Shown in pieces: positions 46,195-52,158 of a stretch of DNA of 62,999 nt (position 1 is its first letter; every line of letters starts with the position of its first letter). Under the pieces are notes generated by a model. The model was given only the letters and a program-made list of their open reading frames with translations. It made no database searches and was not told where the DNA came from. The position numbers were made by a program, and so were the translations under genes. Origin of the DNA: an uncultured Bacillales bacterium (GTDB lineage Bacteria; Bacillota_I; Bacilli_A; RF39; UBA660); contig CAOJDP010000004.1 in assembly GCA_948433085.1 (NCBI GenBank), forward strand, positions 1 through 62,999, given 5' to 3'.

Positions 46195-47433
46195 ATGATA
46201 GATATTAAATTTTTAAAAGAAAACAAGGAAGTAGTAAAGGAAAATATTAAGAAGAAATTTCAAGATAGTAAATTACCATTTGTAGATGAAGTGGCTAATC
46301 TTTATGATCAAAAAAGAGAATTATTATCTGAGGTAGAAGGAATCAGTGCTGAAAGAAATCGTCAAAGTAAAGAAATTGGAACTTTGATGCGGGAAGGAAA
46401 AAAAGAAGAAGCAGAACAAATCAAAAAAGAAATAGCGGATTATGGAGATAAAATAAATATTTTAAATAAAGAAATTGATTTATTAGAACAAAAAATTACC
46501 GAAATTATGCTGGTAATACCAAATATCATTGATGATTCTGTTTCCATTGGAAAAGATGATAGTGAGAATGTAGAAATCGAAAAATTTGGAGAACCAGTAG
46601 TCCCAGATTATGAAATCCCTTATCATGCTGATATTTGTGAAGCTTTAAGTGGATTAGATAAAGAATCAGCTGGAAGAACAAGTGGAAATGGTTTTTATTA
46701 TTTAATGGGAGATATTGCAAGATTACACTCTTCTATGATTAGTTATGCAAGAGACTTTATGATTGATAAAGGATTTACTTATTGTGTACCACCATTTATG
46801 GTTCGTAGTGATGTAGTAAATGGTGTCATGTCATTTGCAGAGATGGATGCTATGATGTATAAGATTGAAAATGAGGATTTGTTCTTAATTGGAACATCAG
46901 AGCATTCTATGATTGGTAAGTTCAAAGGACAATTAATTAAAGAAAGTAAATTACCAATTGCTATGACATCTTATTCTCCATGTTTCCGAAAAGAAGTAGG
47001 TGCACATGGTTTAGAAGAAAGAGGTCTATATAGAGTGCACCAATTTGAAAAACAAGAAATGGTTGTATTATGTAAGCCTGAAGAGTCAATGGAATGGTAT
47101 AACAAAATGTGGCAGTTTACAGTAGAATTTTTTAGAAGCTTAGATATTCCTGTTAGAACACTAGAATGTTGTTCTGGTGATTTAGCGGATTTAAAAGTAA
47201 AATCATGTGACGTAGAAGCGTGGAGTCCAAGACAGCAGAAATATTTTGAAGTAGGGTCATGTTCTACCTTAGGGGATGCACAAGCAAGAAGATTAAGCAT
47301 TCGTGCGAAAGGGGAAAATGGAAATTATCTAGTTTCTACATTAAATAATCCTGTAGTAGCCATATGCACTCAAATAGGAAATTGGTTGAAATCCTTGAAT
47401 TTTCAAGCAAAATTGACTCCCACAAGTGCTTAA
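46195..47433 (+). pseudogene. serS: Resident serS, 5' 90% only; reading frame leaves SerS homology at ~47349 (disrupted by insertion)
   Basis: Collinear with the SerS at 47586-48875 up to ...YLVSTLNN. It then continues as the unrelated PVVAICTQIGNWLKSLNFQAKLTPTSA*. The real start is the ATG at 46195, after AGAGGAAA. Confidence 0.85.
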
Positions 47434-47585
47434 CGATTAATGAAAATAATGTTAAATTTTATCTTGAGAGTGTGAAAGTTATTGTTGCCGTTTGTGTTTA
47501 AAGGTAATTACTAAATCTTCTCACAAATATATTTGAAATGAAATTGGTAAAGTTATAATACCTAGTAAGAAAGGATTGATTGGAA

Positions 47586-48875
47586 ATGTTAGATATAAAA
47601 TTCGTACGAGAAAATAAAGACAAAGTAAAAGAAAATATTAAAAAGAAATTTCAAGATGAAAAACTGCCACTTGTAGATGAAGTAGTAGAATTAGATCAAA
47701 GAATAAGAGAATTAAAATTAAAAGGCGATTCTTTAAGACAAGAAAGAAATAGTACAAGTGATGAAATTGGTGCTTTATTTAGAGAAAAGAAAGTTGATGA
47801 AGCAAATGCCAAGAAACAAAAAGTTGTAGAAATTAATGAACAATTAGTAGAAATAGAAAAAGAAGAAAATGAATTATCAGAACAATTAAAAAGTAAAATG
47901 ATGGTTATTCCAAATATTATTGATGATAGTGTTCCTGTTGGAAAAGATGATAGTGAGAATGTAGAAATAGAAAAATTTGGAGATCCAATTGTACCAGATT
48001 ATGAAATTCCATACCATGCTGATATTATTGAATCATTAGGTGGGATTGATAAAGACAGTGCAGGAAGAACAAGTGGAAATGGTTTTTACTATTTGATAGG
48101 GGATATAGCAAGACTTCATGAAGCAACTATTGCCTATGCAAGAGATTTTATGATTAGTAAAGGTTTCACTTATGCAATACCACCTTTTATGATAAGAAGT
48201 GATGTAGTAACAGGAGTTATGTCATTTGCTGAAATGGATGCGATGATGTATAAAATTGAAGGCGAAGATTTATACTTAATTGGAACTTCTGAACATAGTA
48301 TGATAGGTAAATTTAAAGGTCAACTAATTGATGAAAAAGAATTACCTATTGCAATGACTTCTTATTCTCCATGTTTTAGAAAAGAAGTAGGAGCTCATGG
48401 ATTAGAAGAGAGAGGATTATATAGAGTACATCAATTTGAAAAGCAAGAAATGGTAGTTCTATGTAAACCTGAAGATGCAATGGAATGGTATAACAAGATG
48501 TGGAATTATACAGTAGAGTTCTTTAGAAGTATGGGAATAGCAGTTAGAACTTTAGAATGTTGTAGTGGAGATTTAGCAGATCTTAAAGTTAAATCTTGTG
48601 ATGTAGAAGCATGGAGTCCTAGACAACAAAAGTATTTTGAAGTAGGATCTTGTTCTACTTTAGGAGATGCTCAAGCAAGAAGATTAGGTATTAGAATGAA
48701 AACTGAAAATGGAAATCAATTTTTGGCGACACTTAACAACACAGTGATTGCCAGCCCACGCTCACTTATCGCAATTCTAGAACAGTCTTATCAAAGGGAT
48801 GGCAGTGTAAAAATACCAAAAGTATTACAACCTTATATGGGTGGATTAGAAGTAATCAAACCAAAACAAAAATAA
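47586..48875 (+). CDS. serS: Serine--tRNA ligase (complete, element-borne copy)
   Basis: Full-length SerS: coiled-coil N-terminal arm, class II motifs (SYSPCFRKEVGAHG, RVHQFEKQEMV) and motif 3 ATLNNTVIASPRSLIAILE. Short promoter-like leader with no T-box. ATG at 47586. Confidence 0.92.
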   Translation: MLDIKFVRENKDKVKENIKKKFQDEKLPLVDEVVELDQRIRELKLKGDSLRQERNSTSDEIGALFREKKVDEANAKKQKVVEINEQLVEIEKEENELSEQLKSKMMVIPNIIDDSVPVGKDDSENVEIEKFGDPIVPDYEIPYHADIIESLGGIDKDSAGRTSGNGFYYLIGDIARLHEATIAYARDFMISKGFTYAIPPFMIRSDVVTGVMSFAEMDAMMYKIEGEDLYLIGTSEHSMIGKFKGQLIDEKELPIAMTSYSPCFRKEVGAHGLEERGLYRVHQFEKQEMVVLCKPEDAMEWYNKMWNYTVEFFRSMGIAVRTLECCSGDLADLKVKSCDVEAWSPRQQKYFEVGSCSTLGDAQARRLGIRMKTENGNQFLATLNNTVIASPRSLIAILEQSYQRDGSVKIPKVLQPYMGGLEVIKPKQK

Positions 48876-48886
48876 TAGATTTTTAG

Positions 48887-48909
48887 CAGACTTAAATGTC
48901 TGTTTTTTT
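48887..48909 (+). terminator. Terminator after the element serS
   Basis: CAGAC-TTAAAT-GTCTG followed by TTTTTTT. Confidence 0.6.
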
Positions 48910-48935
48910 ATGCAATAAATAAAGGAGGTGTTAAA

Positions 48936-49517
48936 ATGTCAGTATTTAAAATAGAAAAAACTAAAGATTTTACTATAATGAGTAATTATCATTTAAGAGA
49001 TAGAAATATAAGTTTAAAAGCTAAAAGATTGTTATCATTTATGTTAAGTTTGCCTGAAGATTGGGATTATTCTCTAAAAGGTTTATGTGCTATTAGTAAA
49101 GAAAATAGAGATGTTATAAGATCAACATTAAAAGAATTACAAGATAATCATTATTTAGAAATTGAAAAGATAAGGGGAGATAAGGGATATTTTGAATACA
49201 ATTATTTGATATACGAAAAACCACATTTTGTTGAACAAGAAAATGAGAATAATGATCCAGATATGGAAAATCCACACCTGGATAATCCAAATGTGGAAAA
49301 CCAACTACAAATAAATATTAATAAACAAAATACGAATAAACAAATAGATAAAGATGATAAAACAATTTCATCTTTTTTTGTTGCTGAAAAACATAATATA
49401 TTAACATTAGAATTAATTGAGAGGGGATATATAAATGAAACTGATACACAAATATTTTACTATGACAAACTATTTGAAGATTTATTACAAAATGATATGA
49501 GAAAGTTTCTAGGGTAG
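48936..49517 (+). CDS. Winged-helix replication-initiator/organizer-like protein (Firmicute plasmid/ICE Rep-type N-terminal HTH); possibly frameshifted
   Basis: FTIMSNYHLRDRNISLKAKRLLSFMLSLPEDWDYSLKGL...LKELQDNHYLE, followed by ENPHLDNPNVENQLQININKQNTNK, both typical of this Rep family. A second frame is open at 49496-49774 without a start codon and continues to just before the iterons. Confidence 0.55.
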   Translation: MSVFKIEKTKDFTIMSNYHLRDRNISLKAKRLLSFMLSLPEDWDYSLKGLCAISKENRDVIRSTLKELQDNHYLEIEKIRGDKGYFEYNYLIYEKPHFVEQENENNDPDMENPHLDNPNVENQLQININKQNTNKQIDKDDKTISSFFVAEKHNILTLELIERGYINETDTQIFYYDKLFEDLLQNDMRKFLG

Positions 49518-51282: not shown

Positions 51283-51290
51283 AACATTTG

Positions 51291-51313
51291 GATCACTATA
51301 TAGTGGTCTTTTT
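51291..51313 (+). terminator. Terminator after the AlbA_2 gene
   Basis: GATCACTAT-ATAGTGGTC hairpin followed by TTTTT. Confidence 0.6.
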
Positions 51314-51323
51314 GGTACTATAA

Positions 51324-52026
51324 AAGTGTAATAAAGAGGGAGATCCTCGTAGAGTTGCTTGGGCTTGTAAAACATATAATACAGATCATCTATCTTGCCA
51401 AAGTTATGGGAATATAAAAGAATCCTATATTGAAGAATTGTTTGTTAATATGTTTTCAGTATTATGTCAGTATAATAAGGAAGTAATTGAAAAACTTTTA
51501 ATCACAATAGAAGAAACTTTTGAAAATGATGATTACTCTAATGAATTAAGAAAGTTAGAGCAAGATATTAAAGCATATCGAGAACAAGTAATGGAACTAT
51601 TAGATATTAGACTTGCTAAAGTAATAGATAATGAAGTGTTTGAAGAAAAAAGTACAAGAATAAATAAAAAAATAGAACTACTTGAAATTGAGGCAAGAAA
51701 AATAAGAGATTATATATCACACCGAGATAAAGTAAAGGATAGAGTAGAAAAATTTAAAACTATTTTTCAAAAAAATGCTACATTAAAAGAATTTGATGCC
51801 GATGTATTTGAAAGTCTTATTGATAAGATTATTATAGGTAGAAGAAATGATGATGGATCTATTGATCCTTATGAAGTAAGATTTGTCCTTAAAACAGGAG
51901 ATGAATTAACCGACACATTACCAATCAAAAAAATACCTTCACAAATGAAGAAAACCGAAAGGGATGATTCCAATGAAAGAATGGAAGAATTACAATCTCA
52001 ATTGGGTGCTTATGCCCACAACGGGG
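51324..52026 (+). pseudogene. Large serine recombinase, C-terminal fragment only (zinc-ribbon tail + coiled coil)
   Basis: The frame opens at 51324 directly after a stop and a terminator. ..WACKTYNTDHLSCQSYGNIKESYIEELF.. (second half of the zinc ribbon) is followed by a coiled coil and ..VFESLIDKIIIGRRNDDGSIDPYEVRFVLKTG.. (the typical C-terminus). No resolvase catalytic domain is present anywhere nearby. Confidence 0.7.
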
Positions 52027-52028
52027 AA

Positions 52029-52158
52029 CACAGTACTAGCAACTCCTCGTGGACTTATCGCTGTCATCGAAAACAATTACCAAAAAGATGGCTCTATTCT
52101 AATACCAAAGGCACTTCAACCTTATATGGGTGGAAAGACAAAAATATCTGTAAAATAA
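52029..52158 (+). pseudogene. serS: Detached 3' end of the resident serS (motif 3 and C-terminus)
   Basis: ..[43 protein letters not shown] aligns with the tail of the element SerS. It joins in frame to 47348. Confidence 0.85.

Follow-up and report, generated by a model that had tools for sequence, protein, structure and literature searches.

An uncultured Bacillales serS gene split at one codon by a probable remnant of an integrative conjugative element that carries its own complete serS

Phage 21 and e14 at icd, SXT/R391 at prfC and the islands in tRNA genes insert site-specifically in a conserved housekeeping gene whose function is preserved by the element. These elements carry only the displaced end of the gene, creating an in-frame hybrid, and their tyrosine integrases rebuild the target through a long core that is identical in attP and attB. 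Large serine recombinases (LSRs) also direct insertions within coding sequences, as for skin in sigK, SPbeta in spsM and phi10403S/A118 in comK, with the 2-bp crossover that is typical of serine integrases. Although aminoacyl-tRNA synthetase (aaRS) genes are essential, foreign copies have often replaced the resident orthologue, as their phylogenies show, and explanations of how cells survive the exchange have mostly relied on transient redundancy. Here, we describe a seryl-tRNA synthetase gene (serS) that is interrupted by an insert bearing a second, complete serS. The locus lies in a stretch of 62,999 nucleotides from an uncultured Bacillales bacterium (GTDB lineage RF39; UBA660; NCBI GenBank assembly GCA_948433085.1, contig CAOJDP010000004.1, positions 1 to 62,999 of the forward strand); this whole stretch is hereafter called the window. 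Comparison with related loci makes it very probable that the insert is what a decayed integrative conjugative element (ICE), one that splits the host serS at a fixed codon, has left behind, and the complete serS of the element (serS-B) would substitute for the broken gene.

The leader and the parts of the two serS genes in the window are as follows.

45817-45997, plus strand: T-box leader with a Ser (UCU) specifier, ahead of the resident serS (Rfam RF00230)
46195-47348, plus strand: resident serS (serS-A), codons 1-384 and the first two bases (AA) of codon 385 (Pfam Seryl_tRNA_N and tRNA-synt_2b)
47586-48875, plus strand: serS-B, the complete 429-aa SerS of the element (TIGR00414)
52029-52158, plus strand: displaced serS 3' end, running from the third base of codon 385 through codons 386-427 to the stop, with the motif-3 Arg in TVLATPRGL... 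and the terminus ...ISVK

From its probable start at 46195, serS-A is collinear with SerS through 385 codons to ...YLVSTLNN (codon 385 = 47347-47349). The open reading frame (ORF) then continues for 27 non-SerS residues, PVVAICTQIGNWLKSLNFQAKLTPTSA, to a stop at 47433, giving a 412-aa fusion product. An initial annotation, made from the sequence of the window, had placed the split after ...YLVSTLNN and the missing tail 4.7 kb downstream, at 52027-52158; all of its coordinates hold, and the joining of 46195-47348 to 52029-52158 does restore a single open frame of 1,284 nt (427 aa, no internal stop). The first 385 residues of the rejoined SerS are 87% identical to the uninterrupted 427-aa SerS P0001, and over 40 residues the displaced tail shares 97.5% identity with the C-terminus of another uninterrupted SerS, P0019. 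By its sequence, the tail matches SerS far beyond what chance would give.

Alignment to the solved SerRS structures 2dq0 and 2dq3 placed the break between TLN(N/S/G) and the motif-3 segment ..LA..R.., in agreement with the earlier suggestion that the motif-3 Arg region had been removed. The tRNA-synt_2b match of serS-A ends at profile position 156 of 179, and the motif-3 Arg sits 4.7 kb downstream. The motif-3 Arg of class II aaRSs acts in ATP binding. Because the break falls just before the motif-3 segment with this conserved residue, the 412-aa host product is probably inactive; the fusion ends in 27 residues without the motif-3 Arg, and the target gene is not rebuilt at the junction. We consider it very doubtful that the truncated host SerS with its 27-residue tail still has a role, such as that of a dimer partner giving a tRNA-binding arm. 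Such a role would be in line with a 385-codon fragment that is intact as an ORF with a T-box and a ribosome-binding site, and with deviations at only 3 of 215 near-invariant SerS columns (P to S, A to S and I to V), which is within the range of intact genes, at its upper edge. The first nine fusion residues, NPVV(A/G)(I/L)CTQ, are likewise kept by synonymous changes between element subfamilies. However, the same synonymous changes raise the symmetry between the P' and P arms of the attachment sites described below, making a DNA-level explanation possible; farther along, 4 of 4 changes are non-synonymous in the serS frame, and the fragment has neither the motif-3 Arg nor the C-terminal helix.

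The diverged but full-length SerS that the initial annotation recognized in the insert was corroborated by profile searches. serS-B (429 aa) is 75% identical to the rejoined host SerS, passes the NCBIfam serS equivalog TIGR00414 (397.8 bits versus a cut-off of 301.65), and matches Pfam tRNA-synt_2b over profile positions 8-178 of 179, motif 3 included. None of the 215 near-invariant SerS columns deviates. Since it passes the equivalog cut-off and shows no deviation at these columns, serS-B is probably functional, and it probably supplies the SerS activity at the locus. The 3 deviations in serS-A versus 0 in serS-B may be a weak hint of relaxed constraint on the former.

The same arrangement recurs in other hosts, with junctions at the same codon. 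To follow the left junction, proteins 90-99% identical to serS-B were examined in their contigs. Each of these relatives sits 153 nt 3' of a truncated serS of 412-413 aa, behind varied host genes (SUF cluster and HD_4; acetyltransferase and DUF1653; SpoVS; peptidase M19; MscL; dCMP deaminase; DUF2207; ABC transporter; HTH_31). The attachment sites in the window are the following.

47327-47370, plus strand: attL, comprising the host B arm, the crossover AA (47347-47348) and the element P' arm TCCTGTAGTAGCCATATGCAC; the same P' arm follows AA in 12 host alleles
52005-52050, plus strand: attR, comprising the element P arm GGTGCTTATGCCCACAACGGGG, the crossover AA (52027-52028) and the host B' arm; the P arm (at most 4 mismatches) is found at 10 host tails

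All host genes break at ...TLNN, where the crossover AA is followed by TCCTGTAGTAG(C/G)C(A/T)TATGCAC or, in the third subfamily, by CCCCGTGGTAGGCTTATGCAC. In total, 12 distinct host serS alleles share this left junction, with the same Asn codon and the same element end. For the right junction, species-representative genomes were scanned with the intact 584-aa LSR P0247, which had been found by exhaustive protein search (a word-indexed search with the LSR fragment of the window gave only six short fragments). The scan revealed ten loci with LSRs 77-91% identical to P0247, nine of which abut a serS tail; the tenth, L016, reaches the contig end there. The right arm ...G(C/T)TTATGCC(C/T)ACAACGGG(G/A)AA directly precedes a serS tail starting with (T/C)AC.GT (= N-T-V...), and ten distinct host serS tails occur at this junction, counting the window and L011/L013. 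No serS piece was found in the same scan near any locus whose LSR is at most 52% identical to P0247. The 10 kb 5' of the LSR are common to the right-end loci at 70-84% nucleotide identity, which therefore indicates a common element backbone. According to their record titles, the hosts are uncultured Bacilli, Tenericutes, Mollicutes or Firmicutes metagenome-assembled genomes from human, mouse and other gut samples.

With the window included, the crossover dinucleotide is AA in 12 of 12 left and 10 of 10 right junctions, consistent with the 2-bp crossover of a serine integrase. The attP rebuilt from both element ends (...GCCCACAACGGGGAA joined to TCCTGTAGTAGCC...) is an imperfect palindrome around AA, as read directly from the sequences: 15 of 21 positions in the window type and 20 of 23 in the L177/L019 type. 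The claim that an integrating element splits serS while carrying its own serS is thus borne out by identical junctions in the 12 left and 10 right host alleles. The element SerS copies are 93-100% identical to each other, whereas the host SerS parts are 67-80% identical mutually. The element SerS is identical in L005 and L006, whose host parts share 72%, and again in L007, L008 and L009, whose host parts share 74-79%; one element SerS protein, P0179, stands behind four differing host contexts. Because the element SerS is nearly identical while the host parts diverge, the element appears to have spread horizontally among hosts in recent times.

These comparisons also bear on two other readings, namely that serS was duplicated locally in tandem before an unrelated insertion occurred, or that the arrangement is an assembly artefact; together they retain a negligible probability and were rejected. 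Two adjacent serS copies in the same orientation would suit a duplication, but they are only 75% identical, and the second is 93-100% identical to copies in unrelated hosts that are flanked by the same att arms. The window arrangement is repeated at 100% identity in two independent assemblies, L003 (ERZ14863994) and L004 (ERZ14864679), which excludes the artefact that the initial annotation had allowed for. An exact empty site, described below, also speaks against both.

A complete element with both junctions on one contig was found in DLOU01000060.1 (Bacillales bacterium UBA7476), with attL at 3176 and attR at 32353, giving an element of 29,176 bp. It encodes serS-B, a sortase, a VirB4-like DUF87/AAA_10 protein, an M23 peptidase, a PF03432 relaxase, a coupling protein (T4CP), a 2,173-aa SNF2-type protein, and an LSR with Resolvase, Recombinase and Zn_ribbon_recom domains. 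When its flanks are joined, an intact 428-aa SerS results. Conjugation genes were also found in relatives (VirB4-like protein and PF03432 relaxase in L091; coupling protein in L005 and L021), and L021 has the three-domain LSR. As a VirB4-like ATPase, a relaxase, a coupling protein and an LSR occur together on one complete element, the intact family member is classified by its gene content as an ICE of ~29 kb. Excision, conjugation and LSR activity would be expected of this family, with the LSR as the presumptive enzyme responsible for integration. A prophage was considered and rejected: the element corresponds to no known phage or plasmid, and no phage structural genes were seen. In one subfamily, a TetM/TetW/TetO/TetS-family ribosomal protection gene was also observed (L007 15379-17290, L008 15379-17290 and L009 14519-16434; 1243.8 bits on NF033148 versus a cut-off of 1100), adjoined by PadR and glyoxalase genes.

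The state without the element was found in L093, from a sister sample, which is 100% identical to L009 (ERZ14425198) over 6,908 nt and diverges exactly after ...GAACAA(T); the SerS of L093, P0068, is uninterrupted and has 428 aa. This pair modifies the proposal of the initial annotation that such an element would be self-addictive. Because an element-free host with an intact serS is viable, intact elements need not be addictive: L093 has a clean serS in an otherwise identical strain without the element, so that element loss need not be lethal and the family does not qualify as an addiction module. Dependence on the element serS would hold only for imprecise loss of a remnant without an LSR, such as that in the window.

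The insert in the window (47349-52028, 4,680 bp) has lost most of the ICE. Beyond serS-B, its features are as follows.

48936-49517, plus strand: truncated HTH_36 / replication-initiator-like gene, 193 aa versus 250-260 aa in intact elements, with likeness to them stopping at 49487
49488-51322, plus strand: 1.8-kb segment in place of ~24 kb of intact elements, conjugation genes included; found only in L003 and L004, and as a joint in L011
49945-51282, plus strand: SLFN_AlbA_2 / HATPase_c_4 / MarR-type gene, 445 aa, inside the 1.8-kb segment (phrog_12156, annotated 'DNA helicase')
51290-51309, plus strand: terminator-like hairpin in the 1.8-kb segment (terminator prediction)
51323-52028, plus strand: LSR fragment beginning at about codon 344 and extending to the P arm, with the Resolvase and Recombinase domains and most of the zinc ribbon deleted

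Over its left 2,139 bp, the insert is 93.9% identical to L005; over its right 706 bp, it shares 94.9% nucleotide identity with L021, from nt 1030 of the L021 LSR gene; the 445-aa SLFN_AlbA_2-type gene between them was seen only in the window's own species (L003 and L004). The large-serine-recombinase remnant that had been noticed at the serS tail matches Zn_ribbon_recom, DUF4368 and the integrase family phrog_95, and aligns to residues 346-576 only of P0247 with 86% identity. Residues 1-343 of the three-domain LSR are gone, and profile searches of 47349-52028 revealed no VirB4-type ATPase, coupling protein or relaxase. Since the catalytic domain of the LSR has been lost, though both att arms are intact, the insert is, by its gene content, a remnant that would be unable to excise or move by itself, and not an autonomous ICE. 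The 4.7-kb element of the initial annotation therefore does derive from an integrating element, but as a deletion derivative of a ~29-kb ICE instead of a whole element.

The remnant might not be locked in if it were a non-autonomous element that a related ICE, giving the recombinase in trans, could excise or move; we consider this unlikely. Both attachment arms of the window, P' and P, occur unchanged beside intact elements. In addition, L011, from another host, starts with the same SLFN-gene/LSR joint and then continues 99.99% like a contig with an intact LSR. That joint, however, is confined to the terminal 67 nt of a contig and may reflect a chimeric assembly. All three contigs of the window species are 100% identical and carry the remnant, no empty site was found for this species, and neither a transfer origin nor a relaxase is visible in the remnant. 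We therefore favour a remnant fixed at the locus.

As to L011 itself (SRR14920958, another host and sample; Logan contig), positions 1-67 equal the SLFN-gene/LSR deletion joint at window positions 51264-51330, and from nt 68 it is 99.99% identical to a same-sample contig with an intact LSR (L013 was noted alongside). L011 could be a trans-mobilized deletion derivative, a recombinant or an assembly chimera. Elsewhere in the window, a DUF3800-I RNA was found by Rfam at 18868-18984 on the minus strand (60.7 bits versus a gathering score of 44.2); it is unrelated to serS.

The sequence that follows TLNN in the window had been described simply as unrelated. It has an identity of its own: read in a different frame, it forms the 3' end of the recombinase gene.

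47349-47501, plus strand: left end of the element, the last 50 codons and stop of the recombinase gene, contiguous with 52028 only in the excised circle

In ten distinct right-end LSR sequences, no stop occurs before the crossover, and the integrated LSR ORF runs into host DNA with a different tail in each host. When the ORF is read over the rebuilt attP, it goes on for 50 codons through the left end and reaches the same stop in three subfamilies (loci compared: window 47349-47501 with 51323-52028; L021 10001-11734 with L091 3178-3330). In the left-end stretch, 17 of 23 variable columns fall at codon position 3 of the LSR frame; past the LSR stop, variable columns are distributed 12/16/13 by position and are about three times denser. 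The LSR of UBA7476 would comprise 628 aa in the circular form versus 591 aa when integrated. Because the variable columns concentrate on codon position 3, the split frame is supported; on this codon-level evidence, attP lies inside the recombinase ORF, and integration would split the recombinase gene. The attP joint of an excised circle was not found in viral contigs.

A sister LSR clade, L022-L053 (~49% identical to P0247) from similar hosts, whose targets are not serS, shows a conserved ...AYVLQRH followed by locus-specific tails, the pattern expected of a gene that runs across its att site. The downstream flanks of the sister LSR clades (~42-52% identity), inspected to test for carried copies of essential genes, held no recognizable split gene.

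The transcription of serS-B may draw on both the host and the element. Two further features are relevant.

45779-45808, plus strand: sigma-70-like promoter (TTGACA-18-TAGAAT with TG) 5' of the T-box leader; the top-scoring site of the region by consensus match only, 11 of 12 matches
48885-48904, plus strand: terminator-like hairpin 3' of serS-B (terminator prediction)

The T-box leader of the resident gene matches RF00230 over model positions 1-219, the full model, with 83.1 bits (E=5e-18; gathering score 93), and its specifier region GAA-UCU-A contains UCU, a Ser codon that fits serS. serS-B begins 237 nt inside the left end of the element in the same orientation as the host serS, and no T-box belonging to it was found by Rfam search. 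No terminator was predicted from the host T-box to the end of serS-B, and therefore read-through from the host promoter and T-box is plausible. About 25 nt 5' of the serS-B start, a -10-like hexamer T(A/G)TAAT is kept within a spacer that is otherwise 50% variable; its conservation there suggests that serS-B has a promoter of its own.

Native genes related to serS-B were found in two contexts. In L095/L096 (9700-11284), a solitary B-type serS follows thrS and a T-box-like leader; the L095 gene is 97% identical to serS-B at the amino acid level and 94.5% at the nucleotide level, with the similarity beginning exactly at the ATG. The second, in L241 on a 1-Mb contig, shows 88% amino acid identity to serS-B. 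The L095 gene is 94.5-95.9% identical at the nucleotide level to the subfamily of the window, L005 and L094, a subfamily that itself shares 84-88% with the other two ICE subfamilies. As the native gene is closer to one ICE subfamily than the ICE subfamilies are to each other, element and native serS copies seem to exchange sequence by capture or gene conversion, in one direction or the other. A metagenome scan with serS-B returned only native serS at 69-81% identity, none with either att arm. Within serS-B, window positions 48745-48775 hold an attB-like site (...ACACTTAAC AA CACAGTGATTGCC) with no visible difference from the host sites that are used, and among the hosts that were targeted is one whose serS tail is of the B type (L018).

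In another reading, serS-B is mainly an adaptive cargo, conferring resistance to an albomycin-type SerRS inhibitor or escape from the T-box, with the break in the host gene being incidental. Inhibitor-resistance aaRS genes on mobile elements are known (ileS2/mupA; the albomycin-resistant serS2 in Streptomyces), there is no T-box ahead of serS-B but a conserved -10-like hexamer, and some family members carry tet(M/W/O/S)-family resistance genes. On the other hand, every member seen pairs serS-B with a host insertion that removes motif 3, as compensation predicts, and the 88-97% identity of serS-B to native SerS of related hosts (L095 and L241) indicates no special divergence. Adaptive cargo is thus considered quite improbable, and compensation for the broken host gene is preferred.

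In the mechanism that we propose, the LSR would join attP to a single attB in serS with the crossover AA, at the second Asn codon of ...TLNN before TV..., just 5' of the motif-3 Arg. Integration cuts the last 42 codons off the host serS and would thereby inactivate the host SerS. The element would compensate with a complete serS without a T-box, which could be read from the host serS promoter or T-box and probably also from its own -10-like hexamer. That a whole gene is carried may be explained by the enzyme: a serine integrase shares only 2 bp between its sites, and the P' arm, which must fit the enzyme, presumably cannot also encode motif 3. Intact members of ~29 kb spread among gut Bacilli and Tenericutes-like hosts, and the uninterrupted serS in a strain identical up to the crossover would represent the state before integration or after excision. 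In the window, an internal deletion or replacement has removed the conjugation module and LSR codons 1-343 while attL and attR were kept. Because the remnant encodes no recombinase, the host serS would stay split, the foreign serS-B would be the working gene at the locus, and an essential aaRS would have been displaced in place.

Several observations weigh against this account. The tblastn search for a third serS covered the window only, where it found none and left serS-B as the sole intact serS. The empty site that the initial annotation had proposed to look for exists for the sister copy (L009 versus L093), but none was found for the species of the window, for which the nearest uninterrupted relative of the rejoined SerS is 87% identical. 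The attB-like site inside serS-B shows no immunity signature, and the attP of the circular element might recombine with it in a self-deletion. The T-box score lies under the Rfam gathering score. Finally, the serS-A fragment is still free of stops and frameshifts and shows no significant decay at the near-invariant columns; the insertion may have happened recently, or some constraint may persist on the fragment.

If the proposed course is correct, one event gives both the redundancy and the loss of the resident gene, and decay of the element then fixes the swap, which suggests one way in which an essential gene may be exchanged for a foreign copy. The swap would also move the working serS from direct T-box control to read-through, a possible element promoter, or both. 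A serine integrase could use a conserved essential gene as a broad-host-range attB, provided that the whole gene is carried. In practical terms, some members residing in human and mouse gut bacteria have tet(M/W/O/S)-family genes, and the LSR, whose attB in serS is defined, is a candidate for a tool to integrate DNA into uncultured low-GC gut Bacilli. A broader proposal may be made for the family as a whole: gut ICEs that land in serS and carry a full serS would, through decay, repeatedly fix a foreign serS in place of a T-box-regulated host gene, constituting a recurring route of aaRS replacement, and the full 628-aa LSR, available only from the circle, might act as a sensor of the integration state that biases the direction of recombination. 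We regard the case for and against this broader proposal as evenly balanced.

Neither the annotated phage and plasmid collections nor IMG/VR contained a close relative of the element: all LSR relatives from IMG/VR and PLSDB are at most 45% identical, and matches of serS-B in phage records reach at most 69% identity, in unannotated faecal contigs. In a full-text literature search, no report was found of an element with serS as its target, or with a copy of the aaRS gene into which it inserts. The nearest described systems each share part of the arrangement. Like the elements at icd, prfC and tRNA genes, the serS element is site-specific in a conserved housekeeping gene and would preserve its function; unlike them, it uses an LSR, carries a separate complete gene instead of the displaced end, and leaves a fusion without motif 3. 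With skin, SPbeta and phi10403S/A118 it shares the LSR, insertion in a coding sequence, the 2-bp crossover and an exact uninterrupted allele. The targets of those elements are dispensable in growth and no substitute is carried, in contrast to a synthetase target for which the substitute is always present. The LSRs TndX of Tn5397 and TnpX of Tn4451, from clostridial and enterococcal conjugative or mobilisable transposons, likewise combine Resolvase, Recombinase and zinc ribbon domains with a weak DUF4368; the resemblance extends to Firmicutes-type conjugation genes and, in some serS-element members, to tet(M)-family cargo. Tn5397 and Tn4451, however, use loosely defined sites, whereas the serS element uses a single serS codon and carries the target gene.

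For the split recombinase gene, the closest precedent known to us is that of SSV-type archaeal integrases, for which PMC8371274 describes an attP inside the int gene and an integration that splits the recombinase gene. The full-length recombinase ORF of the SSV1 type exists only in the circle, as in the serS element. The SSV1-type enzymes are tyrosine recombinases of archaeal viruses, whereas the serS element has a bacterial serine recombinase from which only the last 50 codons are separated. ileS2/mupA and the albomycin-resistant serS2 are also second, diverged aaRS genes on mobile elements; they coexist with an intact chromosomal copy under selection by an inhibitor, whereas the serS element itself breaks the chromosomal copy. 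Each component is known by itself, be it an ICE driven by an LSR, an insertion within a gene or the compensation of a damaged target; what seems new is their combination, in which a synthetase gene is broken at a catalytic motif, a whole replacement gene is carried, and the recombinase gene is itself split.

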